A stretch of 63,748 nt of DNA, the filler included, from Folioceros fuciformis (taxonomy: Eukaryota): the NCBI GenBank assembly GCA_049999805.1. It is 6 parts of 5 records of this genome, joined end to end, with 100 filler letters (N's around TTAATTAATTAA, not from the genome) between each part and the next. Parts side by side here need not be neighbours in the genome. Positions count along the whole stretch, not along the records: positions 28,549 to 43,724 come from JBNGIO010005650.1; 5 more parts are not named here. The stretch is one strand, 5' to 3'. This document shows, one piece after another, positions 12,381-56,444 of the stretch (the stretch's first letter is position 1; the number at the start of each line of letters is the position of its first letter). The notes under the pieces were generated by a model that was not told the origin of the DNA, made no database searches, and worked only from the letters and a program-made list of their open reading frames with translations. A program made the position numbers and the translations under genes.

Positions 12381-15254
12381 TGAGTAAATATGGAAATTGG
12401 TGTAGACCAATTGCTATAAAACAATTACATTATTATATTGATTAAACAATAATTATATACAGCATAGACAAATAACTAAACTTAAGCTAGGTAGGGTGAA
12501 TAGACACACCCTTTCATAAAGGACGTAACCCAAATGAACGGGCACCTAGACTTATAGTAGCTATGAACGCATTCACCAAACGAAACCTAATGTATTAACA
12601 CCCTATTCTCATCACTCCCACTTGTTAATCATTATGGGGTCAGTTTGCCTCCCCTCCACTACGTTCAGAGTTGTGGAGACTGTGACTCCAGCTGAGAACC
12701 TCACGATCCTTGTGTGTACTTTGGGGCGTAGGCTCAAGGTGGCGCTGCTGTGTGTGAAGGCGACCGTCTACAGGTTCGCACTTCTTGTAGCTGCTATTTA
12801 CGTCCCATGCCTTCTGGCAATAAAGCTCGTTGAGCGAAGGCTGAGGAAAGTAACAATGGCGTCTCCAGGGTCTGATGATGCTCTAGCAGCCAAGGGGCGC
12901 AGATACCAGCGGGACTCTGCAGGAAGGTTCATCACATCGCCTATGGCTAGAACAACTGCCATCGGAGCACGGGCAGAAGAGCATCAACTTGCACAGCAGC
13001 CAGAGACACACACACGAGGAGGAGGAGCTAGCGGCGTTAGGAGACCGCGGGGGCGGCCGCGAGGCACTACCAGAGCAAGCTTGAGCCAGTGGCGTGACAT
13101 CGCGACATCCGGACTCTCCGTCTCCCCTCCAAGCTTTCGACTTTCCAGCATCAGAGGTGGGAAGACTGCTGGCCAGATTACAGCAACTCCAGCAACACTT
13201 TCTTCAGGCGCTGTGGATGCGGGCAAAGGTTTAGGCACAGCACGAGGGAGGACGGCGGCTAGGACTGCCGAATCTTCGAGAGCCGGGGCTATGGGCGGCC
13301 TATCCAGGAGCCGCATTCCTGAGCTCGTGTACTCACGGGCTGTTGTGGAACAGAGGCGCTTCAATCGAGGTGAGTTCAAGTACGAAGGTGTTGACCAACG
13401 TCCTCCAGTTCCACCCAGATTTCCAGTTCCAAGCAACGTCATGTCAGAGACCAAGGTGATCACACCTGGTACTTGGGAAGTGTCGGGCAGCCCGCTGTGG
13501 TACAAGTGCCAAGTTTCTGGCATCACCATGAAGAGAGTGAGGGTTGAAATGTTTTTGGAGTGTAAAGGCCACATGATCAGCTTCTACAGTAAGCCTCTTG
13601 CTGATGGTAGCTTGTGGCATAATTGTTTCCTAACCCCCTGCTGATTATCATCACTTGTCTGACTTTGCTCCCACTGTCTCCTCACAGGGTCTGAAGAGCG
13701 ACTGGAGGAGGAGCAAAGCTTGGAATCTAAGGACAGAATCTCCTACAAGGAGAGGAAGAAGAGACAGTCTCCTCGTTCGGAGAATGAAGTCTTTTCCTCT
13801 GACACTGTGGAATATGCTTCATGGGAGAAGCTTGGTGATTCCACCACCTCAGAGAGTAGGGGTTCTTTTAAATCTCCTCCTGGAGATTCAGACAATGATG
13901 ATAGTCATGATTGGGGTTATGAATAGCCTGCTAGGCTAGGGCTTAGACATGGCAGTGGGATTGCCTTCATGCCTTCCCATGCCAAGTACTCTCATGTGTT
14001 TTTCATGTAGCTCCCTTCCTAGGGGCTTGGTTAAAATGTCTGTTGGATTTTCAGACGTAGGCACATATTCAAGGCTGATATCTCCAGACTTGATGAGGTC
14101 ACGTATAAAGTGATACTCAACTTCCACATGTTTAGTCCTGGAGTGAAAAACAGGATTATGTGCCAAGCTCATTGACCCTTGGTTATTTGTGTGGATTGTG
14201 GTGCAGGCTGGAAGGGGAATTCCAAGTTCCTTGAACATCAGCTTGCACCAAGCTATCTCCTTCGCAGCAGCTGTAAGTACCCGATATTCTGCTTCAGTGC
14301 TAGATAGGGCTACAGTAGGCTGTTTCTTGCTAGACCAGCAAATGGGTCCTCCAGCCAACATAACCAGAAATTGATTTCCTTGTGTCTATATCTCCAGCAT
14401 AGTCTGAATCAGTATAGACATCAAGATGTAAGGGCACTCCAGGTATGTGCTTGTATTTTACACCAATGCTGTGAGTTCCTTTCAGATACCTGAAAACTCT
14501 CTTAACACCTGTCCAGTGTGTTTGCCTTGGGTTTTCCAGATACTGTGATAAGACACTAGTAGCATAAGCTACTTCTGGCCTAGTGGTGTTAGCTGCATAT
14601 ATGAGTTTGCCTACAGCTTGTCTGTAAGGGACTAAACTCATCTTCATTTTTTCTAATTGTGTATCAGGACACATGGTTTTACTCATCTTCAGTCCACAAG
14701 GCAAAGGAGTTGTAGAAGGTTTAGCATCCTTCAATCCAAGTTGTTCCGCACTACTAAGAAGGTAATGTGGCTGTGTTAATGAGATAGTTCTCTTCGTTTG
14801 TCACGCTGAATTAGAGTACCAAGACAGCTCTGTAAGGCACCTAAGTGTGTCATTTCAAATTTGGTTGATAATAGCTTGTTCATGTCTTTGATGAAGGTGG
14901 GACTGTTACAAGCCAATATGAGGTCATCAACGTATACTGCCAGGTAACAAACCACTTCATTTGTCTTGTATACATATAGGCTCCCATCTGAGACACATCT
15001 GACAAAGCCTAACGCTCGCAGCTCTTCATCCAGGACAACATTCCATTCAAGAGTTGATTGTTTTAGATCATACAGGGTCTTGATTAAACGTAAGACATAA
15101 TCTTCTTTTCCTTTCACCTCGTATCCTTGTGGCTGTTGCATGTAAATTTATGTATCCAGCTTTCCATGTAAGAAGGCTGTCTTTACATCAAACATGTCCA
15201 ACTCATAATCATTGTGTGCTGCCAATGCACAGATAGTGCGAAATGTGGCCAGCT
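12381..15254 (-). mobile_element. Ty1/Copia element C (3' part, cut by contig end), inserted in the integrase of A
   Basis: 3' LTR 12381-12600 with a purine tract (minus strand ATGAGAATAGGG, 12601-12612). RNase H 13936-14361 and RT (YVDD) 14330-15254 on the minus strand. Confidence 0.9.
12856..13926 (+). CDS. Predicted spliced antisense accessory gene of Copia C (~323 aa, AT-hook, acidic tail)
   Basis: Exon 1 12856-13588, intron 13589-13687 (GTAAGC...CTGAC...pyrimidine tract-CAG, phase 1), exon 2 13688-13926 joins in frame. RRPRGRPRG at 13039-13065. Confidence 0.7.
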
Positions 15255-22600: not shown

Positions 22601-22720
22601 CAAGAATTTGTTGATTATGAGGTGACAAATGCATGTGCTATCTTTTTTACTTTGGATGCTAATGATATATGGGCTTCTGTTCAACCTCCACCCAAAACTG
22701 AAGTTTGTCGATGTTGAAAA
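19645..22720 (+). mobile_element. Second, diverged and 3'-truncated copy of the same Gypsy-like family
   Basis: 20796-22350 is collinear with 16637-18080 (MEGEGPYKQERFSSRPRTQTLRDFRLH; FPLKTPEKIAELAAFARKKGET). The leader 19810-20900 matches 15540-16640. Confidence 0.85.
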
Positions 22721-23633: not shown

Positions 23634-25965
23634 ATGAATTCTTCCAGCGGTGACAACACCAATTACTACGATGCGCTCGGGGTCAGCAAAAATGTTTCTC
23701 AGGAGGATCTGAGGAAGGCTTTCCAAACGGAGGTTATTGAAGGCTACCCTGACAAGAGTGCGGACTCTCAGAAGGTTTGGCGATGGAGGCTTCCCAGCTC
23801 CCGGTCTAGGTTTAGGTTTTTGCGTGCAATGTTATCGTTTCGTCTGCTAGCGTTCTTGTGTGGTATAGTGGCATGGTAGCTGGTTTGATTGTGTCACCAA
23901 TTTCCCTTGACTCATCTTGATGGCAGGCAGTTGCTGGTAAAGCCTTCTCCCGGACAGTTTGCGAGATCTGGTATCTTTCACTCGTTTCATTTTTGGAAGG
24001 AACACGGTATTTGTCCCAAGCTTTGGTGTAAAGGACTCTGCTGACTCTGGCTTGTTGGTTGGCGGACCTCCCCGTTGCAGGAGGTTTTCGCTACTTAGAT
24101 GGATGGAGGGAATTCGTCTGGGGCGCGTTGGCCGGGGGGTTTGGGGAGACCATCATGCATCCAGTGGACACTCTCAAGACGCGAATTCAGAGCCAGAGTT
24201 TCGGGCTTCAGGTATTAAATGACCGAAACTCAGGGGGCCAGTTGAATGTGCAATAGACTTGTAGGAAGTAAGCTGGCGGGGGAATGCAGCACAGGTAAGA
24301 TCGGAGAGTAACGCAACCGGTTTATCAAGATTGTTTCAGTGAATGCTGTGCTCTTAGGCAGGTTGTTGTAGGAGTGCTGTTGCCGTTCTGTTGGTGTTGG
24401 TGTTGCTGTTGATGATCCTCTCGGTGAACAATCAGAGCCAGAAGCAAGTTGGGCAGCTACTGGGACCGGTCAGAACAGTCGATGGCGTAAGAGGTAACTC
24501 GTCGACCTTGTCTTCTGTATGGTCCCCTAATCTGAGGCTCAATGTGGCTGCCAGGACTCTTCCTTCTTCTCCCTTCTTATTGCTTTCCTGGTTTTGTCTA
24601 CAGGATTGTATAGGGGAGTGGTACCTGGAATTACTGGATCTCTGGTCACAGGAGCCACTTACTTTGGATTTATCGAGTCAACCAAAGACTGGCTTCGAGA
24701 AACAAACCCAAGGCTAGAAGGTCCCTGGGCACACTTCTTAGCTGGTGCAGTCGGTAAGGTGTCAATAGCTCACATTTGCCCCACACTTGGACCTTCCTTG
24801 TTCACACCGGGGGCTTGTTTTCTCATGTGACCTTCATGTTTCAGGGGACACCATTGGATCGGTGATCTATGTTCCGTGTGAAGTGATAAAGCAGAGAATG
24901 CAAATTCAGGGCACTCCTAAAAGCTGGCAAGCAGCAGCATTGAGGGAGGCCCCCCAAGCCGTTTACTATACAGGAATATTTCAAGCGGCTAACTCAATCG
25001 TTAAACAAGACGGACTCCGAGGTTTATATGCAGGGTATTTAGCTGCTCTTACCCTCTGGGATTTCCTGTTCACCAGGAGCATGTCGGCCAACAGTGCATG
25101 TCTCGTTGACGATGCTTGTGCTTGCTGGCAGCTATCTGTCAACTCTTGCAAGGGACGTACCATTTGCAGGATTGCAGGTAAGGAGTGGGTGGCTAATGAG
25201 GTTGACGTTCGTAGCTTTGATGGCTTATCTGGTCTTCGCGTTCTCTACCTGCTACTAAGAAAGGGGGACGGTGCAGATCATGTTCTACGAAGCTCTTAGG
25301 ACTGGTGTTGAATATGGCCATCAGCAGTGGTCATCCTCCACAAATGTGGCGCACAACTTTGGTACTCTTGAAGAGTTGAGCATGGGTGGTGCTGCTGGCG
25401 GTACGTGTTTACCTGGTTTTTCTACATCGAAGCGTCCACTAGCTTGGTTCATGAACTTGAGATTTTGTAAAGTTTTGTGCTTTGGTACGAGTTGGAATAG
25501 ATGCCGATTGTGTGGAGTTGGAGTATGTGGTAAACGTCAGGTTTCTTCTATCTGCAGTCGCTTCACGCATGTCTTGTGACGCAGGTCTCAGTGCGTTTTT
25601 AACAACTCCGTTCGATGTCATCAAGACACGGCTTCAAGTCCAAGGCCTCAACGCAGTGTATGTGAAAGCCACCCTGGCCGATTTCACCCCTCTCCCGCTG
25701 TGCTCCGTCGATGTAATTAATACCATGTCTCTTCAGATATGCCGGTTGGACAGATGCTTTGCGAACAATTTGGAGGGAGGAAGGCGTAAAGGGCTTTTTC
25801 AGAGGAGCTATCCCTAGGATTTGCTGGTTTGTTCCGGCGTCAGGCTTGACCTTTATGGCCGTGGAGTACCTACGAAAGCACCTCAACCCAGAGCTTCGTG
25901 AACAATCACCTGCACCATCCGTGATCTCCGTGGTGGGCCCTCCCTTGGACGAGATCCGAACGTGA
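23634..25965 (+). CDS. Mitochondrial carrier family (SLC25) protein, At1g74240-like, with a probable DnaJ-derived first exon
   Basis: Carrier signatures PVDTLKTR, PCEVIKQR, PFDVIKTR. Predicted GT-AG exons: 23634-23774, 23931-23970, 24081-24211, 24436-24493, 24604-24753, 24845-25034, 25132-25177, 25277-25400, 25585-25657, 25737-25965. Phases are consistent; the first two exons are less certain. Confidence 0.9.
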
Positions 25966-26192
25966 CACTTGTCCCGTACGGAATTCCATTACGGGCAGGG
26001 AACTCCAGAGCCTGTCTGCCGTCTAAATAGCGGTTTTCCATATTTTCAAGAGACTTTATTGTTATCCGGACCTTTTACCAAACTGCTAGAGTAGGTAACG
26101 GCGAGACTGGAAACGGATTCACGTACTCAGGGTTCACGCATTTGCTATTGCGATTGGTTGAAGCTCAGGAGTTGCACGCTCTTAGGAGGACG

Positions 26193-27571
26193 ATGGCCAC
26201 CAGGGCGGTGCAGAGATATGGCCTCCGGGATGTTGCTGCCAGGGTGAGGCTGCTCTCCAGTGGGCGCCGCTGGCACGGTTCGTGTTGCGGGAGCTCTCTA
26301 AAGTGGAACGAAACGCCGAGCATCAGCACCTTGGGACAGGGCATATTATTGCGTGAAGAGGAAGGTCTTTGGGATCGAGGTTTAGGGTTTATGTGCGAGC
26401 AACGAAGGAGTCTGAGATTGTTGGCCAAGAGCGAGGCGGAGCGGGAGAGGCGGCAGCAGGCCGACAGGATCGTAGTTTACAGAGGCAAATGGATGCGTCC
26501 GTTCCGATTGGTTGTCAGGTGTGCAAAGGTGACATAATTCATGGTCGCCGTTCCATGCGTGGCACCCCGTTGATGTGTGCAGTCTGCTGCAGACTGAAAC
26601 TGGTTCAGCTGGCGGGCGTGGGAGCGTTGGTCATCCCCTTGGCACACTTGTCTCAACACGTAGGCTCCCGTTGCCATCGAATTCTTCACGCCTACAAGCT
26701 TGGAAGCAGCTCAATGTCTCGAAACTGCTAAACCGCTGCGATGTTGTCGTGCAAGGCGCTAGGGTAGCCTTCCACTTCCGGCGTTGTTAGCTTGTGGAGG
26801 TGTTTTGATTGGATCCGCATCCGCATCCGGTGCTCTTTGGTACTACTCTCGCAGGTACGCAGTGTGGCTGATTTATTTGTTTTTTTTTTCTAGGCTCGCT
26901 GAGCTTATTCTAATGAAGCATCCCCGAGCTCGATGTGCGCAGGTATGTAGGAGAAATGTCGCTGACACCTGACATGAAGCGAGTGCAGATCAGTGTGATG
27001 GACTTCTGGGGCAACCGCAAGGTGAAACAAAAGAGTCGCTCCTCCATTGGAAGCATCCCTCTTACCACGACCCTCCGAAATACATCTGAGAGCCGTAATC
27101 TTGTTTGGATTGTTTTGCAGGACGTGGAGGTCGATGTGAGGTGACAGCACACCGCATCCTACACCGTGGTTTCCGCTCCCGGGTTGCATCAGAACCGCAG
27201 ATAATGCTAACAGCAACAAAAATTGTATTGCTCCAGGGATGTGATCCCGCCGCTCCAGGGGTTGGACAAGGAGGAGCTTCAGGCGGTAGCGAACCACGTC
27301 CTGACCCCGCTGAACGGTAAGTCGATGCTCCCGCGCACCTAACGCCTCTCCTTTTCCCGCCATCTGTCGCGCAGCATTATGACGAGGCATTGCACCCCCC
27401 CTGTGCTGTCACCTTTGCTTTCCTTTGGTGCCATCAGTGGCAGGCGAGCGTCAGTTCGTACTGAGCCTGAAGCACGGGCAACTGGTGCACAAGGAGAAAT
27501 TGTTCCAGCTCCTCCACGGCAAGCTGTCCGGCGACGAGCAAGAGGAGGATGTGGTGGAGTCGAGTGGCTAG
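26193..27571 (+). CDS. TMEM186-like mitochondrial membrane protein
   Basis: Basic presequence-like N-terminus, two hydrophobic segments, then RRYVGEMSL...VQISVMDFWGNRK. Predicted exons 26193-26518, 26593-26659, 26763-26854, 26943-27021, 27121-27140, 27237-27316, 27438-27571. Family call is from recalled motifs. Confidence 0.75.
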
Positions 27572-28448
27572 GCAGCCGCCTCGCCTCCTCGGTGCGGGGC
27601 CTGCATTTTGTGTATTCAGTCTTAGATTGTGATCCGTCTCCGCTTACTACGTCACCTACATTCTGTACTCCACTTGTCTTCTACAGCCTGGGGAGGACGC
27701 GGCTTTTCTATTGGGAAGCAAGTACACGCGCGTTCGCACTGTATCACACTTTACGAGCACATGCGGAGGCAGCGAAGAGGTCAAATCCTTCATGTACGTA
27801 CACACATACATATGTATATGCATCAAGGGTATCGAAAGATGAGTTGTGATGCGTACAGTCCTGACATACTCTGTACATAAGACTGGCGAGCTTTACAGCG
27901 GAGGGGGTGTTCCTCCGCATACAGTACGTCGACGAGCCAGAAACAGGGCCATGAAGACAGCCAGACAGCAGGGCTAGCTAGACAAGGGCATTGGCAGGGC
28001 TCAACAGTAAAGATGGCAGCCAGATCTGATTCGCCGCGTGTTTGGCTGTAAGCTCGGCCTCCGCGGTATTTTTCACACGTGACGTTAAAACAGGGATGAG
28101 GCTCGGGAGGGATCTGATCCCAGTGGGTAGAAGCGTCAGACATTTGTGATTCTCCGCGGAATGGCTGCCTACAAATGTTGACAGTTGGGGATGGTTCGGC
28201 GGCAATCGGAATTCGGACATGCGCATTGCTGAGGAGAAGGAATTGAGCTCAGTTCGGTTCCTGCTCTTGTTTTGCAAGTGGAGGCAAGAAAGGTGTCCGA
28301 TGGTGGAGAAGGTGTCACAGTGGTCATGTTGCTCAGCGTCCCCGCGGGGGGAGCAGCAGCAGGGGCGGACTCCGTTCCGTCGACGCCGCAGCGTGGGCAC
28401 GGCTTGGGCGGGCGCCGGCGCGGGCGCGGGCTTGGGCGCGAGGAGCAC

Positions 28449-28548
28449 NNNNNNNNNNNNNNNNNNNNNNNNNNNNNNNNNNNNNNNNNNNNTTAATTAA
28501 TTAANNNNNNNNNNNNNNNNNNNNNNNNNNNNNNNNNNNNNNNNNNNN
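28449..28548. other. Artificial contig linker
   Basis: N44-TTAATTAATTAA-N44. Confidence 0.98.
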
Positions 28549-31500
28549 GCTACTGCTGACACTTCGTCAGATAGGCTGCAAGAAAAGGACAGACTTACCC
28601 CGAATAATTATGATGCCTGGAGTTTCAGGGTGCATTGCATTCTAGAAGAAAAACTGCTCATGGATGTTGTAGATGGCACTTTGCCTAAGAAGGTTGCCGG
28701 AATGCCCTCTGGATTGACAACACTAGGAGGCACAGTTAAGAATTGGAACTTAAAGGACGAACTGGAATGGACGTCCAAGGACAGGAAGGCATGTACCATA
28801 CTTGTGTCTTCTGTCTCATAGGAGATGATCCCTCATATAAAACTGACTCAGTCCTCAAACGAAGTCTGGTCACTTTTATCTGAGACTTATGAGTCAAAAG
28901 ACATGATGACTGAGGTTGCTGCAACACCGCACTTCCAAAATCTTTGCATGAAGGAAACCGATTCTGTTGAGAGTCACGTTGCTAAGTTTAGGGCTGCTAG
29001 AGCCAAACTAGCATCTTGTGGAGTCATCCTGTCTGAGTCTAGGGCTGTTGTACAGCTGCTAGCCTCACTCCCTCCTAGTTATGAGCAGTTCAGTTCCAAT
29101 CAGCAAGCAACAACAATTGTAGTTCCTGCCACTGCCACTCAGCATGCATCATCAAACCTCACTATGCAGAAAGTTGTTGGAGCCCTGTTACAGGCTGAAG
29201 CCAACAAGAAACATATGCAAAAGGGAGCATCCTCTAGTTCTTACAAACAGAGTGACACTGCCCTCTTTTCTATCAGAGGTCGAGGTAGAGGCAGGGGACG
29301 TGGACAAGGTGGCAGAGGGGGTTTTGGAAGAGGACGTGGACAGTCCTTCCAGCCCAACTCAAACTCCTCTTCATCAACCAAGCCTGGTAACTGCAATTAC
29401 TACAACAAACCAGGACATTGGGTTAAAGACTGCACGAAGAGGATTAGAGACGAAGCAGCTAAAGGTAAGCACACATCAGAATCAAATACAGCCAGAGCAA
29501 GCAGTCCTGATCTACTGGTGGCGTGCCTTACCTCATCAAAGAAAGGATGCAGAAGTGGTTCCTTGATAGTGGTGCCTTAAACCACATGTGCTCAAAGAGA
29601 AAGTCATTTCTTACTTATGAGTCTTCCCTCGTTTGCCAGCAAACTGCAATAGTATTAGGAGATGATTCTACAATACCCATCAAGGGTTCTGGAACTATAC
29701 ATATTACCTTGAAGGATGGCAGTTTCCTGTTCTTAGAAAATGCTCTACATGTTCCAGCAATTGCTAAGAATTTGGTTAGTACAATGGCACTTGGAAAGAC
29801 AAATCAATACAGGATAACTTTTGAAAGCACAGAATGTTACATTTCGAGGCTGTCAGCTCCAACTATTCCTATTGCATGAGGAAAGCCACTCTTTGATCTC
29901 TATCTTATGGATTTTATATCAGATGTACCTCCAGTATTTGCACCTGCATCAAGTGCATAAGCTCCAGACAAGTTAGTTACGAGTGCCTTTAAGTGGCACT
30001 GTAGGTTGGGGCATCCAAAATATCAAAGCTATGCGAAGATTGTTGAAAGAGAAGATGGTAATTGGATTTAATGAAGCTAAGTTACCTGACCTTGATCTGT
30101 GTGTTGCTTGTGTACATGGTAAACAATCCAAATCAGATTTTGGAAGTGGAAAACCTTGCAAGGCAACTGAGCTGTTAGATTTGGTCCACACAGATATTTG
30201 CGGACCAATGTTAGTTAACTCATGGGGAGGAGGAAGGTATTTTGTAGTGTTTGAAGATGACAGGTCTCACTATATTGTCACTGAACTTCTTCATCAGAAG
30301 AGTCAGGTCTTCGACAGCTTCAAAAGATACCTAGCATATGCAGAGAGACAGACTGGACTGAAGCTAAAATGTATACGTTCTGATAATGCAAAGGAGTACT
30401 TATCTAAGGCCTTCCAGAAGTTTTGTCAGGAGAGGGGGATCACTTGTCAACTCACCATACCATATCATTCAGACATGAATGGACGTGCAGAAAGGAGACA
30501 CATGACTATTCAAGATTCAGGGCACTTCTCTTTCAAGGGAGGTTGCCAATTCGCTTCTGGGCAGAAGCTGTACAAGTGGCAACGTACATACAGAATAGGA
30601 TAGCAGTCTCCTCTCTTCAGGGTTGTACTCCATTTGAAGCCTGGACTGGCAGTAAGCCTAATCTGTCGCACCTTCGTGTCTTTGGTAGTACAGCCTATGC
30701 ACATATCCCAGACAAGCTGCGTCAGAAGTTTTCCTTTAAGTCCAAGAGACATATCTTCATAGGGTACACTCCTGGAATACATGGTTATAAGTTGTTTGAA
30801 CCCTATACACATTGAGTCATTCATGCTCGTACTGTAGTCTTTGATGAATGCCCTGTCCTTGAGCCCCATACACATACCTTTGCTGATTCTGTAGACTTTG
30901 AGCTTGTAGAACCCGCTCAACCTATTGACTTGGGTGTCAATGATCTCATTGAAGATGTGAATGACTCGGATGTTGTGGAGTTTCTTGATTACGACTTGTC
31001 CTACCTTCTTCCTGATTTACCTGAAGGCTCTCATCTACAGCAGCAACTGTTACCTACAGAACAAGAATCTTCAGAACCATACATAGAACTTTCACTGCCT
31101 GACCATCTAGCCGGTGCCGACGATGATCAGCTTGCTGTTTTAGTTTCTATTGTTCATGATCTTTCAGTGCAGGCTGATCCTCCAGACGAGATGATTGTAG
31201 ATAATCCAGTCGAATATATGATGCCAGTTCCTTCGATTGAATCTTCTCGACGGTCTTTACGAGTTCGTTGACCTCTTGATTAGTGGCGGGAGCCCCCTTA
31301 TCGAAGTGTTGATTTTCGTCAGGATCCAAGCTCTCGTAATTCTGATGCTGCTAGGGTTGCTGTGGACAAAGCTCATGTAATTACCAATCCAGGATATGAG
31401 CCCTCCACCTATCATGAAGCAGTCACTGGATCAGAAGCTAAACACTGGAAAGAAGTTATCCAATCCGAGTATGACTCGCTAGTGCAAAACCATACCTGGG

Positions 31501-34200
31501 AACTCTGCTCCCCACTTGAGGGGAGGAAGATTGTCACATCCAAGTGGGTGTTTAAATTGAAATACAAAGCAGATGGGAGCATCACCACGTACAAAGCTCG
31601 CCTCGTTGCTCGTGTTTTTTCCCAAGTCCTAGGCCTGGACTATCACGATACTTTTTCACCAGTTGTCAAGTTTCAGTCTCTTCGAGTGTGGTTCTCCATG
31701 TCTGCTTTCTATGGGCTGCACATCCATCATATGGATGTCAAGACCGCCTTCTTGCATGGTAAGTTAGAAGAGGAAATATTCATGCAGCAGCCAAAGGGAT
31801 TTGAAGTTGCAGGAAAAGAAAGCTGGGTTTGTAAGTTATTGAAGAGCATTTACGGTCTGAAGCAAAGTCCACGTGCTTGGTATCAGTGTATCGATGAGTT
31901 TCTCCTTGGACTTGGCTTTCTAAAGGGCACTGCAAATACTTATGTGTACTTCCTGCAAGAGCAAACGTGCTATGTTATTCTGGCTCTATATGTGGACGAC
32001 TGTATTCTGCTTGGAACCAACCTAGAGGGAATCACCAGAGTTAAGGCCTTGTTGTCAAGTCGGTTTGATATGGTCGACGTTGGGGAGATGTCTTATTGTC
32101 TTGGCACTCAACTCCAACGTGACCCCGCAAACATGACACTGATCATACATCAAGAGAAGTATATCTACGACATGCTGTTCAAGTACAAGTTGTTAGATGC
32201 CAAGCCTTCACTTACCCCTTTGGAGACAGGGTGTAAACTTACCAGTTCTCAGTCCCCTGAAGGAGATGCTGAGAAAGCTGAGATGGAGCTGGTTCCTTAT
32301 CCTCAAGCTATCGGCTTTCTTATCTTCTGCTCTAACAATAGTAGCCTGATGTAGCTCTCCCGGTTAGTATGGTTTCTCAGCATTTGAAACGACCTGGAAG
32401 AGTGCATTGGACAGCAGTGAAAAGGATACTTTGATATCTTAAGGGAACCAGTGGACATGGAATACATTACACAAAACGAGGCCATGATGAGGAAGAGCTT
32501 ACCCTTGTTGGACTCTATGATGTAGACTGGGCAGCAGACCCAGACACTAGGAGGTCTATCTTTGCCTATGGCTTTTTGCTTGCAGGTGGAGCTGTGACCT
32601 AGTCTTCTAAAAAGCAATCAATAGTGTCACTGTCTTCCAGAGGCGGAGTACTTAGCCCTAACTGAAGCAGCAAAAGAGGCTATGTGGCTGCGAAGGCTAC
32701 TCACGAATTTAGGTCAGCCACAAAACAATCCAACTGTGATATATTGTGACAATCAGTCAGCCTTAGCCCTAGCACAAAATCCAGTCTTCCATGCAAGAAC
32801 CAAACATATTGAAGTACACCATCACTTTGTGATACATGCGATGGAAACTAAATAGGTAAGGCTAGAGTATATTCCTACAAAGTCAAAAGCAGCAGATCTC
32901 CTTACCAAGTCCCTACCTAGGCTGAAGCACTATCAATTCAAAGAAGCGTTGGGAGTCTTAGGCCCACTTCACACAGCCAACAAGTCCAGCAATAAGTGAG
33001 AAGAGTGGCCGTGAGGCTGACAAAACTAGTGCCAAGAGGAAGTCTACTCTATTCACTCTCCATAGTCCGACCTTTTTCCTTCAGAACTCTCTTGAGTTCG
33101 ATGTGGAAGGAGAATTGAGCTCTGTCTTTTCATCAGCTCTGTTCCTGGTATTAGGGTCGTAGTTGTGTTCCTCGCCACTTGTGATGTCATCTTCCCCTTC
33201 ACGTTGAACGTAGCCAGCCTCATCTGCCATCTTCTCCCAAGACACTGTATCATGAAGTAGGTTGTTTAGCAACAGGCCATACCACAACAACAATGGGACA
33301 ATAATCAAGGCAAGCTGTAGGTTAACTGTTTTTACCATAGCTCGATATGAAGTTTCCCTCGTGTCCGCCCCATCTCCACCAGTTCTCCTTGAACATACAG
33401 ATGTTAGTTGTTGGGCAGGTGTAGACTTCAGGAGTTTTAGGGTCGTTTACACCATTTTCGTCTGTGATGACTCGTCTGCGTAGAGTCGGGTGTCCCAGCG
33501 GCAGCTTATACTCCTTAGCCTGGAAGTCAGTTGGCACAACAACATCATCTAAGCCCTCAGTTAGCTGTTCCCTTCTTGTCCTACCCAAAGGAATGTTTAG
33601 AGAGACTCTTCGAGAGGTGGTCACACTTTTTCGTCTCAAGCTGTCTATCTCCTTGGTCAAAGCCTCTTCTCGCTTCTTCGCTATCACCAGTAAGTCCTGC
33701 CAGTACTTGGTTGCTCCCCTGTCAATGACTTTGTATGGAGGCTCCCCTTCAGGCTGGACTGGACAGGGAGGAGCATGGAGAGGAGGACAGGTGCAAATTT
33801 GACGCGCCATAGCAAGAACACCGAGTGTCCCAGCAGACATGAAGCGAGGTGGTGGGCGCACAACAGGCGGTGACGGCTCCTTGTTGATGCTGTGAGGATC
33901 GTTGCTGTCTTCTCTATCAGATGATGATAAATCAATAGGCGCAGCCCGTGTTCAAGCCATGGCGGTGACCCTCGAAGCGTGAATGAGGAGCTTCTCAGCT
34001 GGAGACTAAGTAGAGACTGAGGAGCGCACATCGAAGACTGATCTTAAGTTCAGCTTGCTTTAGGTTTTATCTGTATACCCAATGAGAGGGGGTGTTGCAG
34101 ATAATTACGATATATAATACTTTTGTTATGCATTATGTTATACCTAAAACGAAAGGGTAAACCCTAAATACAGTTATGTAACCGTTTCACGGGTACAGCC
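28549..34200 (+). mobile_element. Ty1/Copia element D (5' end lost at contig edge), decayed
   Basis: gag with RGG tract and knuckle 28549-29580, protease WFLDSGA, integrase 29983-30815, RT (YVDD) 31362-32354, RNase H to 32999. PPT ATGAGAGGGGG 34082-34092, 3' LTR starts at 34093 (end uncertain). Confidence 0.92.
33081..33960 (-). pseudogene. Predicted spliced antisense accessory gene of Copia D, with one premature stop at codon 3
   Basis: ATG at 33960 in CACCGCC-ATG-G context. Codon 3 is TGA (likely from CGA), then the frame is open to 33336. Intron 33335-33245 (GTAAAA...GCTAAAC...CAG, phase 1). Exon 2 33244-33081 is in frame. Confidence 0.65.
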
Positions 34201-34209
34201 TACATGCCC

Positions 34210-35177
34210 TTGACCCCCAGCAAATTCAGTCTAGTCCTTGTTGCAATGTTTGGTGCGCGCTGAGTTCGATCAGAGAATTTGTCAGTGCATACCAAAAACT
34301 TAACTAGGAGAGGGGGACGAATCCGCCCGCTGCGCGGAGTGGAGGGAGAGTCTCTCCTTCCCTTATTTCCTGAACCGTTGGCTGCGGAAGAGTGAGTTGA
34401 GAGGCCCTGGAGATTGCTGGGGTCACTGCAAGGTTGCTGGACCCTGGAAGAGAATCGCTGAGAGTTGGCGGGATGATTTAGAAAGAGTGCTGAAGTTTAG
34501 ATGTGATTCCTGGAGAATTTTCAAGAGATTTTAAAGTGTTTGTGAGTGGCTGTTGAAGATGGTGAAAGATTGCAAAGGATTGTGAAAGATTCGCTGGAGA
34601 TTTGTGGGCGCTACTGGAAGACTAAGACCCTTGAGGACGGGCCTGTGAGGAATAAGTGTACATCGAAGCTTCTGGTGTGTTTTGCATGTGGAAGATGGTT
34701 GCATGTGTATGTGTGTGTAGGGTGGTTGGTCCGCGAGGTCTCGTTCCCCCAAGGATTAGCACTTGCATGTGTGTGGAGCATCCAATAAAACTAGAACTGT
34801 GAGTCTAGAAGCCCCTAGGGCAGAAACCTGTGGTGGAAACCCGCAGCGGCACATGCGCCGGAAAATATTAGTTAGGGTTTTGAGTGGGACCCACCACAGT
34901 CGTAGGGACCACTACCAGTCGCGGAACCAATGACTGCGGTTGTGGAGTAGAGACCAGAGTCGTAGAGCTGGGTCTGCGGTAGCTAGGCTAACTAGAGGGT
35001 GGTGGTAGTTGAACTGGTAGGTAGTTGGGCAGTAGTGGATAAGGTCCGACCTAGGTAAGAGTCAGTAGTAGAAGAAACCTGTGTTACTTGGCACAAATCA
35101 TGCCCTTGGGAGCAAATCTTATGGCTACAACGACATAGAGGGTTTGTGTGGGCCTTGCGGTGTCCCTGGACACAACA
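34210..35177 (+). mobile_element. LTR-like fragment of a family also present at 57420-57628
   Basis: The 3' end (aatcatgcccttggg...gctacaacgacatagagggtttgtgtggg...ggacacaaca) aligns with 57545-57628. The left boundary is approximate. Confidence 0.55.
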
Positions 35178-35321
35178 TTAACTCCACAGCATGCTATACA
35201 TTCCTTCCTTAGGAACAAAGCTTGTAGAAAATGTGTGCAAATTGATTAAATCGTGTATGAGCTAAAACACATGAAAAGGAGCTTACTTATGGTGTGCCAA
35301 AGCAGATGCGTCGGTTCGTAT

Positions 35322-35555
35322 CCTATTTTCTGTGAAAGCTTTCATCACTTTTTTTTTGTGAAAGCTTTATCACTATTTTCTGTGAAAGCTTTCATCACTC
35401 TTTTTTTTGTGAAAGCTTTATCACTATTTTCTGTGAAAGCTTTCATCACTCTTTTTTTTGTGNNNNNNNNNNCTTTATCACTATTTTCTGTGAAAGCTTT
35501 CATCACTCTTTTTTTTGTGAAATCTTTATCACTATTTTCTGTGAAAGCTTTCATA
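35322..35555. repeat. ~45-bp tandem repeat containing a 10-N gap
   Basis: Unit ctattttctgtgaaagctttcatcactcttttttttgtgaaagctttatca, about 5 copies. Confidence 0.9.
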
Positions 35556-35632
35556 AAAATTTTCCATGGTCACAGAGAGCATCTATACAGCATATGCTTA
35601 AGGGTTTAGGGTTGAGGCCCAGGCCCAAGAAT

Positions 35633-35815
35633 TACCTCACTCTCGATGCATCCTTGGCTATTGTATGCACTCGCGAAGCCGCCTCTACGACCNNNNNNNN
35701 NNATGCATCCTTGGCTATTGTATGCACTCGCGAAGCCGCCTCTACGACCAACCTCACTCTCAATGCATCCTTGGCTATTGTATGCGCTCGCGAAGCCGCC
35801 TCTACAACGACCAAC
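35633..35815. repeat. ~60-bp tandem repeat
   Basis: Unit acctcactctcgatgcatccttggctattgtatgcactcgcgaagccgcctctacgacca, 3 copies around a gap. Confidence 0.9.
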
Positions 35816-36202
35816 TTGCTGATAGCCAAGCCTTTGTTTTGACAACCACAATGAAACCTTGAATCACAAATACATATGAGGTAGTACACAAAACATGTCT
35901 CCCCAATCCTACAACTTGGAGGAAGTTGTGCAGCAAAAGCCTTGGGGAAGGGTTGGTATTTTTGCCTTTGCTTGAGAAGCCTCCTATCAACCACCCCACT
36001 AGCAATTGTTGCAATAGACTTCACTTGGACAAGGCTTTACCCAATTGAGAGGCCAAACTTCAGGCTACATAGGGTCGAGCCAAGGCTCATGGCCACAAGT
36101 AGCCTGAAACAGGTTGTTATCGCCCTCGAGGTAGTTTTAGGCATGGGAAGGTAGAAGCTTAGATTCTCACACGGCCCCTTCCGGCACATTATGGATTACA
36201 AG

Positions 36203-36459
36203 TGGCCGCGCGGGCCCTTGCATCACTCCATTCATGGCTGAAATGGCCACGTGGGCCCTTGCACCAACTCCACTCATGGCTGAAATGGCCGCGCAAGCCC
36301 TTGCATCAACTCCACTCATGGTTGAAATGGCTGCGCGGGCCCTTGCATCAACTCCACTCATGGCTGAAATGGCCGCGCGGGCCCTTGCATCAACTCCACT
36401 CATGGTTGAAATGGCTGCGCAGGCCCTTGCATCAACTCCACTCATGGCTTAAATGGGCC
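36203..36459. repeat. 39-bp tandem repeat
   Basis: Unit tggccgcgcgggcccttgcatcaactccactcatggctgaaa-like, about 6 copies. Confidence 0.9.
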
Positions 36460-36616
36460 GAGTAGAGAATGAGCCTGCCATGCCGAAGGTGAGAAGATGA
36501 AATCATATGCAAAGCTAGGTGTAGTCCATTTTGTGATGCAAGTGATCGTATGGCCAAATGCAGCATCTCTCATTAAAATGAAATGGGCAACTCAAGTTGG
36601 GCCTGTAGGTAGTCGG

Positions 36617-36707
36617 GCTGTGGACTTGAGCATGGCACCTAATCTGGGTTGTAGACTTGAGCATGGCACCTAAACTGGGTTGTGGACTTGAGCATGGCAC
36701 CTAAACT
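36617..36707. repeat. ~31-bp tandem repeat
   Basis: tgtggacttgagcatggcacctaaactgggt, 3 copies. Confidence 0.85.
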
Positions 36708-37616
36708 CTAATCTGTTTTCGGCAAAAGCAAAAAGCCTGAATAGGGTTGCAGGGCAGAGCAAGGAGATAGAGAACATTCATTTTTCCTCTCCATGTTTGT
36801 GCGCAGGCACATCCTTTCAATCACCTTGCCAAGCAAACACTTTTCTTGAAGCCATCAGTGGAAATGTCTGCTTTGGCTAGGAAGGTCTAATTTGCAAATA
36901 CACCTAAGTGTACATGTATAATGTGTTTTTAAAAAAACCAAGAGGGAGATAATGCATTCGCTTTGGCATAGTCTCTCTTTGATTTGGTTTGGTTCTTTGC
37001 CACGAAATATAAAATTGGTTCTTTGCCAAAGCGGAAAAAAAAAGAGAGTAGGAATGGGGATGAATATGCTCTAGATACCCATGACAAAGAAATAATATAA
37101 TATTAGCAGAGAGAGATTTACCACTTTGGCATGCCATATGTAAGCCGTTTCTCATGTGTTTTTATTTGTCATTCACATTTGATCAATTTGCATCCGTTAA
37201 GGTGCAAAACCTTTGCCCTTCAGAAAAAGCAGTGTGGGTTACATTGGGAACGTGAAATCAGCAGTTTGAGTCGTCGGAACATCCACGTGAAATCTCCGTA
37301 TATCAAGTGCAATCGTAATTCTGACAGTAAAGGATGCAACCCCTTTGCGACAATCCTCTGGTACCTACAATTACCAACGCGTGGTGATGCAATTCAATGG
37401 CAGTTGTAAACAGCTGCCGCTCACCTGACTGGACGGAAGCGAGGGAGCCTTCGAGGAATGCAGCTTCCTTAGCTTGTGTTGGGAAAGCTAGCCCCTCTCC
37501 TCCTTGAACTGGACAAGGCTGACAGGGATCTTACACGGAAGGAATTGGGCAAGAGCTCTTGTGGCCCCTGACAGCTAGTTGTCGAAGCCACCAATCCCCA
37601 CCAAACCATCTACCTT

Positions 37617-40600
37617 ATGGCTGCCCAGCTGGCCGCGTCGAATATCCACAAAGGGGTTGCTCCACTTGGGTCTAGCTGGAGCGTGGCGGATGATGCTCAA
37701 CTTCTCACGCCTGCAGGATACGGAAGGGCCGTGACGGTTGAAACTGTGAACAAACTATGTGAGCAGGGGCAAGTCGAAGGGGCCATTGAGGCTCTAGGAC
37801 TTCTGGTGCGCACACATTGTCATATTACCACATCTCTGTTCTATCATGTCTTGCGGGAATGTGTGGGTAAGAAGAATCTGCCTCTGGGTCGCCGTGTTCA
37901 TGCTCTAACGGTGAGGCAGGGGTATGAGTCGGACACGTTCGTTTGCAGCCACATCCTGCGAATGTATGCCTCGCATTCCAGGCTGCAAGAAGCTACGGAG
38001 GTGTTCGCTATGCTTGCGAAACCCGATGCTTTCGCCTGGTCTGCCATCATTTCCGCTCACATAAAAGTCGGACAAGAAAAACAGGCCATCCGACTGTATC
38101 ATGAGATGCGGAAGTCACGTGTGAAGCCGGATGGACATGTGTTCGTAGTAGCCCTGCATGCTTGTGCAAGGGGACTAGACTTGGAATCTGGGAAGCAGGT
38201 GCATGCCCATGTGTTGGCTACTGGTGTCGATTGTGACTTGTTTGTTTGTAGTTGCTTGGTAGACATGTATGCAAAGTGTGGCAGCTTGGAAGACGCTCAG
38301 AGACTGTTTGACGGGCTTCCTCGAAAGGATGTGGTGGTGTGGAATGCCATGATCGCAGGATATTCCCATAATCGCAGGGGTCAGGAAGCCCTTCGTCTTT
38401 ATGCCTGTATGCAGCAAGGTGGTGTGGCCCTGCCCAATTCCGTGACATTTGTGTCCGTCCTGCTGGCGTGTGCGACTCTTGGCAGCCCAGCTTTGAAGGA
38501 GGGCAAGCAGCTTCATGCACAGATTAGAGAACTAAGGCTTCAGGATGACCCAGTTGTAGGTGGGAGCCTGGTAAATATGTACGCAAAGTGTGGCAGCCTT
38601 GAGGATGCCCGGGCTGTTTTCGACAGACTTGTTCAAAAAACTGCCGTGACGTGGAATGCCATGATAGCAGGATACTCCCAGAATGGTATGGGTCAAGAAG
38701 CTCTTCGTCTTTATGGTTCGATGCAACAGAATGGAATGGCTGCACCCAATTGCGCCACGTTTGTGTCCCTTCTGCAGGCTTGTGCAGGTGTGGGCACTGC
38801 TGCTTTGGAGAAGGGATCGCAGCTTCATGCACAGATTAGGGAAGGAGGACTTCAGGCTGATGTGGTTACAGGTGGCAGCCTGGTGAATATGTATGCAAAG
38901 TGTGGCAGGCTAGAGGATGCGCGGGGCGTGTTTGATGGACTTCATCGGAAAAATGTGTTCACGTGGAATGCTATGATAGCAGCATATTCCCAGCAGGGGA
39001 TGGAGGAGGAAGCCTTTCGACTTTACCAGACTATGCAAGAAGAAGGCACTGTTGCGCCCGATTCTGTAACATTTGCATCCCTCCTGCAGGCATGTGCAAG
39101 TTTGGGCACACCTGCTTTAGAGAAGGGGCGCCAGCTGCATGCACGCATCAGAGAACATGGACTTCAAGCTGATACGTTTGTCAGCAGCAGTTTGGTAAAC
39201 ATGTATGCAAAGTGTGGCAGCCTAGACATGGCTCGAACAGTTTTTGATGGACTCTGTTCAAAAAATGTTGTGACATGGAGTGCCATGATAGCAGGATATT
39301 CACAACAGGGTATGGGGCAGGAAGCCCTTCATCTCTACAATGCAATGCAAGAAGAAGGAAGTGCTACACCCAACTCTGTGACATTTGTGTGCCTCTTGCA
39401 GGCATGTGGAAATCTGAGCACCCTGGGTTTGGAGAAGGGAAAGCAACTTCATGCCAAAATTAAGGAACGAGATCTTCAAGCTGATGTGTTTGTTGGCAAC
39501 AGCTTGGTAAGCATGTATTCAAAGTGCAACAGCCTAGTGGATGCTCAGGTTGTGTTTGATGGACTTGCTCAGAAAGATGTGGTGACGTGGAATGCCATGA
39601 TTGCAGGATACTCCCAGCAGGGGATGGGGCAGGAAGCTCTTCGTCTCTACAGGGCTATGCAGGAAGAAGGCATTGTTGCCCCCGATTGTATGACATTTGT
39701 GAGCCTGCTGCAGGCATGTGCCAAAGTGGGCAACCCAGCTTTGCAGTTAGGAAAACAGCTTCATGTACAAATCGTAGAACGAGAACTTCAAGCTGATATG
39801 ATTGTGGCATGCAGTTTAGTAAGCATGTATGCAAAGTGTGGGAGCATAGAGGATGCCCAAGGTGTCTTTGATGGACTTCCTCAAAAAGATGTGGCTACGT
39901 GGAGTGCTATGATCGCTGGATATGCCCAGAAGGACATGGGGCAGCAAGCCCTTCATCTCTACAGGGCTATGCAAGGGGATGGCCTTGCTGCTTCTGATTC
40001 TGTGACATTTGTGTCTCTCCTCCAAGTATGTGCAAATGTAGCAGCTTTGCAATTGGGTCGGCAGCTTCATGCACAGATCAAAGAGCAAGGGCTTCAAGCG
40101 GATGTGCTTGTTGGTGGCAGTCTGATACACATGTATGGAAAGTGCGGCAGCATGGGTGATGCACAGCAGGTGTTCGAAGCATTGTCCGAGAAAGACGAAA
40201 TCACCTGGAATGCACTAATGTCAGGATACGTACAACAGGGAGACAGTGAAGAGGTCTTCAATTTGTTGGTCAGAATGAGAAAAGATGGGATACAGCCAGA
40301 TGGCGTCACTTTCCTCAGTGTTCTAACAGTCTGCGGTCATACGGGTCTGGTGAACGATGGGCGAGAGTACTTCGAGGCTATGAGCGATCACTATGGCATA
40401 ACTCCGGGGGTGGACCACTACACGTGCATGGTGGATCTTCTGGGTCGTGCAGGACAAGTAGAAGACGCATTAGCTTTAGTCCAGGCCATGCCTATTCCAG
40501 CTGATGCAGCGGTTTGGCACACTCTATTGAGCGCTTGTCGAAAGTGGAGCAATGTGGAGGTGGGGCAAATTGCTTTTGATGAGGCAATGAAGCTAGACAA

Positions 40601-40796
40601 GCAAGATACTGCAGCATATCTGTTGATGTGGAATGTTTACAGCGATGCCCAGATGTGGGAGAAGGCACAGCAGATGCGGTCAAGGGGAGCAAGAATCAGG
40701 GAACGGAAGCAGCCAGGCCAGAGCTGGTGGACGGACATGGATGGACTGGTGCATGGTTTCTCGGTCGGGTGCAAGAAGTATCGCAGCGAAGAATGA
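37617..40796 (+). CDS. PLS-class pentatricopeptide repeat protein (organellar RNA-editing factor type) with E domains and a truncated DYW:WW-type tail
   Basis: 1059-aa intronless ORF with ~104-aa P-L-S triplets (LVNMYAKCGSLEDA..VF; WNAMIAGY). C-terminus HYTCMVDLLGRAG, VWHTLLSAC, PGQSWWTDMDGLVHGFSVG, then stop. No HxE or CxxC. Confidence 0.95.
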   Translation: MAAQLAASNIHKGVAPLGSSWSVADDAQLLTPAGYGRAVTVETVNKLCEQGQVEGAIEALGLLVRTHCHITTSLFYHVLRECVGKKNLPLGRRVHALTVRQGYESDTFVCSHILRMYASHSRLQEATEVFAMLAKPDAFAWSAIISAHIKVGQEKQAIRLYHEMRKSRVKPDGHVFVVALHACARGLDLESGKQVHAHVLATGVDCDLFVCSCLVDMYAKCGSLEDAQRLFDGLPRKDVVVWNAMIAGYSHNRRGQEALRLYACMQQGGVALPNSVTFVSVLLACATLGSPALKEGKQLHAQIRELRLQDDPVVGGSLVNMYAKCGSLEDARAVFDRLVQKTAVTWNAMIAGYSQNGMGQEALRLYGSMQQNGMAAPNCATFVSLLQACAGVGTAALEKGSQLHAQIREGGLQADVVTGGSLVNMYAKCGRLEDARGVFDGLHRKNVFTWNAMIAAYSQQGMEEEAFRLYQTMQEEGTVAPDSVTFASLLQACASLGTPALEKGRQLHARIREHGLQADTFVSSSLVNMYAKCGSLDMARTVFDGLCSKNVVTWSAMIAGYSQQGMGQEALHLYNAMQEEGSATPNSVTFVCLLQACGNLSTLGLEKGKQLHAKIKERDLQADVFVGNSLVSMYSKCNSLVDAQVVFDGLAQKDVVTWNAMIAGYSQQGMGQEALRLYRAMQEEGIVAPDCMTFVSLLQACAKVGNPALQLGKQLHVQIVERELQADMIVACSLVSMYAKCGSIEDAQGVFDGLPQKDVATWSAMIAGYAQKDMGQQALHLYRAMQGDGLAASDSVTFVSLLQVCANVAALQLGRQLHAQIKEQGLQADVLVGGSLIHMYGKCGSMGDAQQVFEALSEKDEITWNALMSGYVQQGDSEEVFNLLVRMRKDGIQPDGVTFLSVLTVCGHTGLVNDGREYFEAMSDHYGITPGVDHYTCMVDLLGRAGQVEDALALVQAMPIPADAAVWHTLLSACRKWSNVEVGQIAFDEAMKLDKQDTAAYLLMWNVYSDAQMWEKAQQMRSRGARIRERKQPGQSWWTDMDGLVHGFSVGCKKYRSEE

Positions 40797-42570
40797 TAAC
40801 TCTTACATGGAAAGGAAAAACTTACGTACAACATGTGGACTTGGTTTCTGCCGGAAGTATCTGACGAGGATAGGCCATTCACTTCTGAGTGGACAGGGAA
40901 ATATGTTCAGGTGCGCATTGTAGAGAGTGAAGCCCCAGAATAATCGACAACGTTGTTCCGCTTCCATAGACATGGAGGGGGAAGCTGGTGATGCCTTCGA
41001 AGCCAAACTCTCAAAGGGATGGCAATTCCTATACCTATTAAAGAGACATGCAGGACTAAGAAGAGACAAACAACGGGGTGCTCCTTCCAGGTCGTATTGG
41101 TGAAGCAGCAGTCCGGATGGATGCAATGGCTTTTGAGACAGCTCTTTGCGGCGTCGTTCTGGATATATTAGGATGCTTCTCAATGGCCGGTGACGTCTTA
41201 CCACGTTTGTTGGCGGGACTAAAGAAGGATTTTTGGTGGCATCAAGGGAATGGCCAAGAGTTTTCCATTTCAAACCTAAAGCTGGCTCAAACGCTTGAGA
41301 GCTGGATGCTTGAAAACGCTTGAGACGTAGTTGGTTGAATTCCAATCTTTCCTCCGCACACTGGGAAATTCTTGGCCAAGCTCTCCTGATGTGTAAGCTG
41401 TCTACACGCCTTGGATTTACTGTTGGACGTTGGTGCCGAAATCCTCTGGTCCAGCTGAGATGCAAAGAATCCTCCAGTAGATACTTTGGGCCATTCGTTC
41501 TACACTCGATGTCTTAAACTATGACTTGGAGATTGGAAAAGCTCATCTGTGTTTCAGCTATGGCACCGAAGCTCGAGCTGTGTGAATCAAGCTTCTGCGA
41601 GAAAACTAGCTCAGTTCCGAAGCCGAAATCTGGAACCTTGCACATTTTTGTTTCGAACACTATACGTTATTCTTCTTACAACAACTACTACGAGCAGACG
41701 GACAGCATCCAGCAGTAAGACACTGGGAACTTCTGGTCTGCTCCTTCAGCGAGAGCGAACGAGATGTGCTGTTCAAGCTTACCAGTCAAGAGCGACAAGC
41801 AGAAATCTGCTCAAACGTAAAGGTCGAAGAAAATTGTGATTTCAGACCCCTATCAGCTACCATCTATACACAAGAGCAACTGCCCCCAGTCTACACCTCG
41901 CAGACTCGCCAAAACCCCTAGCACCAGCCAATAGAACAGAACTTTTCGTTTACGTGCACGAAGAATTGTCATTGAACGGAGAAGACTTTGAGAAGACACG
42001 GCTTTTAGTGGATATTTGCCACTGCGAACACCCTCTTCGCGAACACGGATTCAAAACACCAAAAACGGAGGAGCTGCAAGACATACAAAAAGGTGGTAAG
42101 CGAGCGCATAACAGCCCGATTTAAGGTCTGCCATGGGCTATCCATTAATCGGACTGAGCTGCCATCGTCAAAGGGGATCACGCAGAACGAGAGGGGGAGA
42201 GCCAACTCCACCCAGCTAAGTGGAGAAAACGGACATACCTGTACACGAGGCAAACATGTCCGTTACAAGGCTGTAGAGACGTCGTAGTGCGCCAACATGT
42301 TTGAAGAGCGAGCGCTCTCTAGAACGATCTCCTCCTCCCCTGAGAAGATGGCCTTGAATGAACAGATATAGCACTAGTCAAACCACAAAACCTTCACCAA
42401 GATTTCGCTAGGGGCGTACTCATATCCTCGGGGGAGCTTGGAAGGCAGCTGGCGACTGTCCACAGGCCACAGCAGGAACTCGAGATTGAGTTTGAGGAGA
42501 GGAGGCACGGCCAGGCCCCTTTCACTCATGGGACTGGGGGACGGCTAGGCATAAAACTGCGGGACGGCTT

Positions 42571-56440: not shown

Positions 56441-56444
56441 GACG

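Follow-up and report, generated by a model that had tools for sequence, protein, structure and literature searches.

Does a Ty1/copia retrotransposon of a land plant carry, on the strand opposite to gag-pol, an intron-bearing gene of its own, and is this gene shared with a second, divergent element? The question is raised by a stretch of the Folioceros fuciformis genome (GenBank assembly GCA_049999805.1), hereafter the window, which comprises 63,748 bases in six contigs joined by N44-TTAATTAATTAA-N44 linkers. The contigs occupy positions 1-15254, 15355-28448, 28549-43724, 43825-57319, 57420-61797 and 61898-63748; features are not to be read across the artificial joins at 15255-15354, 28449-28548, 43725-43824, 57320-57419 and 61798-61897. 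The element in question, Copia D, is located together with its antisense gene on the third contig (28549-43724, from record JBNGIO010005650.1). The original prediction assigned to its minus strand a two-exon gene that resembled a gene in another element, Copia C, and placed the two elements on separate contigs; they are indeed on the third and the first contig. In our analysis, the segment 33960-33081 (minus strand) has about an even chance of being a decayed two-exon accessory gene with predicted splicing, antisense in a plant Ty1/copia element and of the type designated aORF-3'R.

Copia D is a Ty1/copia long terminal repeat (LTR) retrotransposon, in which integrase precedes reverse transcriptase (RT) and Copia-type Pfam families follow in order on the plus strand (Retrotran_gag_2 at 28822-29580, rve at 29977-30603 and RVT_2 at 31284-32354). 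Its broken gag-pol, identified by Pfam and tblastn and including gag, protease, integrase, RT and RNase H, extends over 28576..32999 on the plus strand. With the proteins of two other elements of the window, Copia A and Copia E, as tblastn queries, gag to RNase H could be traced over 28576-32987, with at least seven in-frame stops and at least five frame changes. The stop of the pol frame is a TGA at 32997-32999, and it is followed on the same strand by the polypurine tract (PPT) AATGAGAGGGGG at 34081..34092 and by the first part of the 3' LTR (34093..34130), which starts with TGTTGCAG. No 5' LTR, primer-binding site or LTR pair of Copia D was found within the window; the 5' LTR and the primer-binding site are missing because the contig begins at 28549, inside the element. 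This copy of Copia D is dead, and its antisense gene is also broken.

The antisense gene starts near the PPT, as had been claimed, with an ATG at 33960-33958 in the context CACCGCCATGG. It is convergent with pol and covers about 80% of the pol-to-PPT spacer of about 1.08 kb. Proposed exon 1 (33336..33960, minus strand, 625 nt) has a stop at codon 3, followed by 205 open codons up to GNFISSY, and the motif PPVVRPPPRF is found close to its N-terminus. The codon-3 stop, a TGA at 33952..33954, is the sole stop in the proposed coding sequence, again in agreement with the prediction; the open frame downstream of it runs from 33951 to 33325 and has 209 codons. GNFISSY is followed directly by G|GTAAAA, the beginning of a 91-nt interval (33245..33335, minus strand) that we propose, from sequence only, to be an intron. 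It is bounded by GT..AG (donor TG|GTAAAA, acceptor ATACAG|TG), has a T content of 34% and is in phase 1, because exon 1 has 625 nt. Proposed exon 2 (33081..33244, minus strand) codes for an acidic tail beginning with (V)SWEKMAD, in which 14 of 53 residues are Asp or Glu, and ends with a TGA at 33083-33081, 81 nt from the convergent pol stop. In the leader between the PPT and the ATG (33961..34080, minus strand), a stop in the frame of the open reading frame (ORF) precedes the ATG by 16 codons. The 3' LTR has, on its minus strand, a TATA-like run at 34118-34109, about 150 nt ahead of the ATG, which may represent a candidate antisense promoter. Two features of the aORF-3'R type are evident here: the ORF lies between the pol stop and the 3' LTR, and it is oriented opposite to gag-pol.

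The length of the frame was compared with 2000 dinucleotide-preserving shuffles of each pol-PPT spacer. The 209 codons of Copia D exceeded the longest antisense frame, and also the longest frame of either strand, in all 2000 shuffles (maximum 195), and the shuffles were likewise exceeded by the 345 codons that the antisense frame of Copia C has within its spacer (maximum 286). Sense-strand frames in the two spacers were shorter (125 codons in D and 199 in C) and had neither mutual similarity nor a Pfam family. These sense-strand ORFs were ruled out as true genes, and on the same grounds the antisense frames do not shadow a gene of the sense strand. Tandem Repeats Finder reported no repeats in the spacers, and no family exceeded its threshold in an Rfam scan of them. 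When codons were scored with a table from the Copia ORFs of the window, the proposed frame was the best of six in all six segments, whereas a table from a pentatricopeptide repeat (PPR) gene, less favorably, put the D exon 1 frame second (-0.263 vs -0.18 for a frame of the opposite strand). Such scoring is weak evidence, because any stop-free frame is favored. The single stop in 789 coding nt may also be compared with about 12 lesions in the approximately 4.4 kb of gag-pol, a difference too small to serve as a signal of selection. The D frame most likely once coded for a protein, as an antisense additional ORF of the aORF-3'R type.

Copia C, on the minus strand of the first contig (RT at 15147-14779, pol stop at 13938-13936), provides the comparison. 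Its antisense gene has a proposed exon 1 at 12856..13588 (plus strand), in a frame that is open from 12550 and has Met codons at 12856 and 12943. The exon contains MARTTAI at 12943 and RPPVPPRF, and ends with GHMISFY, followed by A|GTAAGC. The proposed intron (13589..13687, plus strand) has 99 nt, GT..AG borders, phase 1, a T content of 35% and two stops. Proposed exon 2 (13688..13926, plus strand) codes for an acidic tail with SWEKLGD and has its stop at 13924-13926, 9 nt from the convergent pol stop. Thus, all the motifs named in the original prediction were found in their places in both genes, as were the phase-1 intervals after GNFISSY and GHMISFY and the acidic second exons. The C protein also has a stretch RRPRGRPRG (about 13035-13065, plus strand), which is similar to an AT-hook DNA-binding motif and for which Pfam lists nothing; a stretch of this type is absent from the D protein. 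The true start of the C gene is uncertain, since the frame stays open upstream of Met 12856. It does so for about 100 more codons, across the PPT into the 3' LTR, and this upstream frame (12550-12855, plus strand) includes a hydrophobic stretch and, near 12634, a further Met. At 11536-12381 on the plus strand there is a truncated Copia fragment (Pol_BBD and gag_pre-integrs); the 3' LTR of Copia C appears to adjoin it or to be inserted into it, which makes it nested Copia debris.

We lean towards common descent of the C and D antisense genes; a distant kinship between them, with a common intron position and phase, is probable but not proven. The comparisons that exploit the exon-intron layout gave the stronger results. 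An ungapped 29-residue alignment ending at both donors had a score of 26, the best among 56,286 exon-1 window pairs. Among 162 pairs of GT dinucleotides close to the ends of the two frames (9 in D and 18 in C), the donor pair 33335/13589 was likewise the best, with 26 compared to 11 for the next pair, and both donors are in phase 1. In the aligned proteins the predicted introns agree in position and phase, each following directly after G..IS.Y in phase 1. In exon 2, a 7-mer containing SWEK had a score of 33, which was equalled in 0.18% of 5000 exon-2 shuffles (p=0.0018). When phmmer was run among shuffled sequences, the real target ranked 12-13 of 3001 from D to C and 48-49 of 3001 from C to D, which is marginal; reversed-sequence controls ranked 1945th or were unlisted.

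Several other observations weigh against this relationship. Smith-Waterman alignment of the spliced proteins, with X at the D stop, is the comparison that had been proposed as a check, and it was borderline: the score was 47 vs 35.5 +/- 5.2 for 1000 shuffles (p=0.037). BLASTP of C against D gave E=6 for exon 1 and no match for exon 2. The lengths of the anchored windows were picked post hoc, and the anchored alignment ranked only 1037 of 63,412 at 15 residues and 376 of 60,822 at 20 residues. Furthermore, Copia E (57538-61797) has near-intact pol ORFs of 394, 337 and 530 codons and a pol stop at 61269-61271, which is separated by only about 250 nt from a PPT-like purine run; this spacer has no antisense frame. 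The distance of Copia E from C and D is on a par with that between the two. Identity of pol between C and D is 41-46%, no closer than that of either to Copia E, and the range among A, C, D and E, the four elements of the window with a visible 3' region, is 35-48%. Because C and D are no closer in pol to each other than to the gene-less Copia E, an inherited system would need either loss in E or very old ancestry.

Contigs from two DNA sequencing runs of the same organism, which include the window's own copy, were used to look for sister copies of the D gene. Sister pieces were approximately 4-18% different over parts of the gene (43 of 422 nt at 33695-34116, 33 of 289 nt at 33789-34077, and 19 of 107 nt at 33347-33453). 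Also unfavorable to a conserved gene are a sister DNA form lacking 33143-33511 (the joint has 152 letters on its shorter side) and weaker joints across which 33454-34063, 33948-34065 and 32976-34070 are missing. Several sister contigs stop or diverge at 34077-34116. In neither of the two runs did a second contig of at least 80% likeness cover 33152-33319. Relatives therefore exist, but not all of them keep the gene, as some forms skip parts of it. Occurrence in all or most members of a family is what sets an aORF apart from a one-off capture (PMC7264820). Another DNA run over 32900-34150 differed from the window almost only by G>A (119 places) and C>T (44 places), and looks like a bisulfite-converted library.

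The alternative that survives best is that the C and D ORFs are both real and once coded for proteins, but had separate origins, whether each was acquired on its own or emerged de novo in a spacer that had expanded, so that the motifs and the phase-1 interval are coincidental. The failure of BLASTP fits this explanation, and so does the DNA comparison of the C, D and A spacers, which yielded nothing between the other pairs and, between D and C, only a 21-nt block (34007-33987 in the D leader, 17 of 21 positions identical to 12683-12703 in Copia C) that is not significant (shuffle mean 0.28). That the motifs differ in spacing had already been pointed out; the difference exceeds 100 residues, as PPRF precedes the donor by about 170 residues in D and by about 50 in C. 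Extra ORFs of LTR elements are known to be highly heterogeneous, and fast evolution or independent acquisition has been proposed for them in the available part of the survey by Neumann et al. (PMC6317226). Copia A, whose LTRs start at about 4654 and about 11212, provides a further example, as it has a third antisense ORF in the same position that is unlike that of C or D. This frame of 154 codons (11044-10583, minus strand, between pol and the 3' LTR; p=0.0075 vs shuffles) ends with ...ATSER, and its TAA stop is within a donor-like AG|GTAAAC. In BLASTP it matched D at E=0.097 over a 21-residue coiled-coil-like stretch and C at E=3.4, neither of which is convincing. It was ruled out as a third member of the family, its phmmer ranks among 3001 being 438-582 for the comparison with D and about 1420 for that with C.

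What speaks against independent origin is the set of similarities described above, that is, the donor-anchored alignment that was best among both the donor pairs and the window pairs, the phmmer ranks between 12 and 49 with clean reversed controls, the exon-2 7-mer, and the intervals that are both in phase 1 and T-rich. We consider independent origin unlikely. The proposed sharing of motifs is borderline: the anchored and exon-2 comparisons favor it, while the unanchored tests were marginal or, for BLASTP, empty. The claim of an inherited accessory-gene system is supported in part: position, orientation and predicted intron phase are common to C and D, but the similarity is only suggestive and Copia E lacks the gene. 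A stronger version of common descent is doubtful, in which a clade of land-plant Ty1/copia elements has passed on the two-exon antisense gene vertically, as a third gene, since ancient times. The same phase-1 intron would have been retained while pol drifted to 41-46% identity, owing its survival to its backward position on the genomic RNA, and surveys restricted to uninterrupted ORFs of at least 250 codons would have overlooked the entire class.

A different explanation is that there is no gene, and that the frame is a chance or shadow ORF in the non-coding spacer of a dead element. Searches for homologues give this explanation some support. With phmmer, D exon 1 had 0 matches among 1.84 billion representative proteins. 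A word-index protein search, which covers targets of near length only, was empty for D exon 1, C exon 1 and the A ORF. The D gene had no match in metagenome contigs, and neither the D nor the C gene had one in viral contigs. At E<=10, Pfam listed nothing for D, including Transposase_28 (PF04195) or an SMC-like domain as in Retand/Tat-type aORF proteins; its sole two rows, for C exon 2 and the A ORF, were at chance level. Six distant Copias found via the D RT (32-45% identity) encoded no relative of the A, C or D antisense ORFs and were too divergent for further comparison. In a protein atlas the best score was 0.76, under lead level, and the recognition value was 1872, compared to the 2300 reached by most known families. 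AlphaFold2 run on single sequences gave low confidence (mean pLDDT 47.8 for D and 39.3 for C). The stop at codon 3, which bars the D copy from making the full protein, and the deletions within the frame in sister DNA forms also agree with the absence of a gene. However, none of the 2000 shuffles reached the length of the D frame, none reached that of the C frame, and the spacers contain no longer sense-strand ORF to be shadowed and no tandem repeats. On balance, the absence of a gene is improbable.

If the frame is a gene, its product is inferred to be an orphan, mostly disordered protein with a proline-rich N-terminal part, a long helix, a beta-hairpin closing exon 1 and an acidic tail. The AlphaFold2 models suggest, with moderate confidence, the helix at D residues 78-110, and for both C and D they predict a short beta-hairpin where exon 1 ends.

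The D gene might also be a single-exon ORF broken by a one-base frameshift, in which case the GT..AG interval would be coding sequence in the wrong frame. The data from D alone fit this explanation, because the exon-2 frame is open through the proposed intron, back to 33446; it thus runs from 33446 to 33081 and overlaps the exon-1 frame by 125 nt, a fact that counts against splicing. Frameshifts are also abundant in this copy of the element, with at least five in gag-pol. The open state of exon 2 is weak evidence by itself, because the third frame is likewise open across most of it. In Copia C, the interval is in frame with both exons and holds the only two stops in a frame of about 1.3 kb, so that a frameshift in D would demand a second, independent accident in C at the same protein position. 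The two proposed introns are in phase 1 and have canonical GT..AG borders, their donors (G|GTAA in D and A|GTAAG in C) fit the consensus, and they are T-rich as in plant introns (34% in D and 35% in C, vs 18-25% in the flanking exons). An intron is favored over a frameshift because C and D break at the same protein position. The D antisense gene is probably split by one intron, and the frameshift has little likelihood.

An origin of the insert outside Copia, as a piece of a host gene or of a different mobile element captured backwards with its intron by transduction or nested insertion, is very improbable, since captures by LTR elements, although documented (usually in one or few copies; PMC7264820, available part) and compatible with sister DNA copies that seem to lack parts of the region, would have to be reconciled with the lack of any host or transposon protein match in the phmmer and Pfam searches, the absence of a second copy of the A, C or D antisense gene elsewhere in the window, and the presence in two other Copias of an ORF in the same position and orientation.

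For a decayed two-exon accessory gene, the following mechanism can be proposed. Transcription of the gene in live copies would start at a promoter of its own near the border of the PPT and the 3' LTR, and the 91-nt intron would be removed from the antisense transcript only. On the genomic RNA the intron is backwards and hence unspliceable, so that it would be copied faithfully in each round of retrotransposition. Retrotransposition reporters that are marked with an intron rely on this well-established logic. If other antisense genes of retroelements are a guide, the product may work in the nucleus and affect how the element itself is expressed or replicated. A disordered protein with an acidic tail, together with the AT-hook-like stretch of C, would fit a nuclear DNA-associated regulator, as reported for gene23 of Grande (PMC7264820, available part). 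Alternatively, the antisense RNA itself could regulate the element by feeding silencing, a possibility that is equally open.

The remaining features of the window lie outside the antisense gene. The PPR gene (37572-40796), which provided one of the codon tables, is intact; its protein has 1074 residues and an E motif, and points to a land plant. Between the 3' LTR region of Copia D and this gene are three direct-repeat arrays at 35314-35563, 35634-35808 and 36183-36498, with units of approximately 51-108, 57-60 and 42 nt, respectively, and the same interval contains a short integrase-like Copia fragment at 35087-35179. On the minus strand at 49037-52297 there is an open frame of 1087 codons, whose sole Pfam row is a chance-level SLH match (E=2.5e-4).

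Antisense extra genes are recognized but functionally unexplained in plant Ty3/gypsy elements, and they were nearly absent from Ty1/copia in one large survey (PMC6317226, in the portion available, as for the other reports cited below). If a conserved, intron-bearing gene of this kind is present across divergent Copia lineages, accessory genes would be wider and older in plant retrotransposons than annotated, ORF-length filters would systematically hide split genes, and a small tractable protein would become available for probing the function of antisense extra genes. The D copy is a dead relic, and the evidence for its family link with C consists of a few short matches in collinear order.

Antisense ORFs between pol and the 3' LTR have been described in Grande, RIRE2, Retand, PvRetro13 and Boty; none has a homologue in databases, and no function is known for them (PMC7264820). 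The antisense gene of Grande has its own promoter and a nuclear product (PMC7264820), and the antisense ORFs of Retand mostly contain Transposase_28 (PMC11963269). In common bean, all 15 families with an antisense extra ORF were Ty3/gypsy, and 63 of 65 Copia families had no extra ORF (PMC4093653). Among the Copia elements surveyed by Neumann et al. (2019), almost all extra ORFs were sense (in SIRE, 74% eORF-3'F and 1% eORF-3'R), and most lineages had none (PMC6317226). This survey counted only uninterrupted ORFs of at least 250 codons (PMC6317226), and with such a cut-off it would miss the D frame (209 codons) and any split gene.

The D gene resembles gene23 of Grande, the RIRE2 ORF, ORF4 of Retand and ORF2 of PvRetro13 in its position between pol and the 3' LTR, its antisense orientation, its orphan protein and the lengthened spacer. 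The hosts of these genes are Ty3/gypsy elements, whereas the host of D is Ty1/copia. At about 260 residues, the D product can be compared with 211-939 in the bean table (PMC4093653) and more than 200 codons in Retand (PMC11963269). D has a proposed intron, whereas the word 'intron' is absent from the two published aORF accounts that we compared. A literature search for intron-bearing antisense genes in Copia retrieved nothing relevant (PMC12477816 concerns DNA transposons). The Copia extra ORFs of Neumann et al. are downstream of pol and heterogeneous, like D, but are mostly sense (PMC6317226). The brtn gene of Boty-like elements in Botrytis and Sclerotinia is, like the D gene, a backward gene between pol and the 3' LTR, but its host is fungal (PMC7264820). 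The env-like ORF of SIRE has the same orientation as gag-pol, whereas the long frame of D is on the opposite strand. HBZ of human T-cell leukemia virus type 1 (HTLV-1) is a spliced gene that is transcribed from an antisense promoter in the 3' LTR and codes for a nuclear bZIP regulator of this vertebrate retrovirus, its promoter and splicing having been demonstrated. HBZ, mentioned in the available parts of PMC7264820 and PMC11963269, is an antisense gene of a retroelement like D; the two have no sequence or domain relation, and in D both the promoter and the splicing are predicted from sequence. Taken together, the D gene is best read as a representative of the known aORF-3'R kind, here in a plant Copia, with a layout that is known mainly from other groups of retrotransposons.

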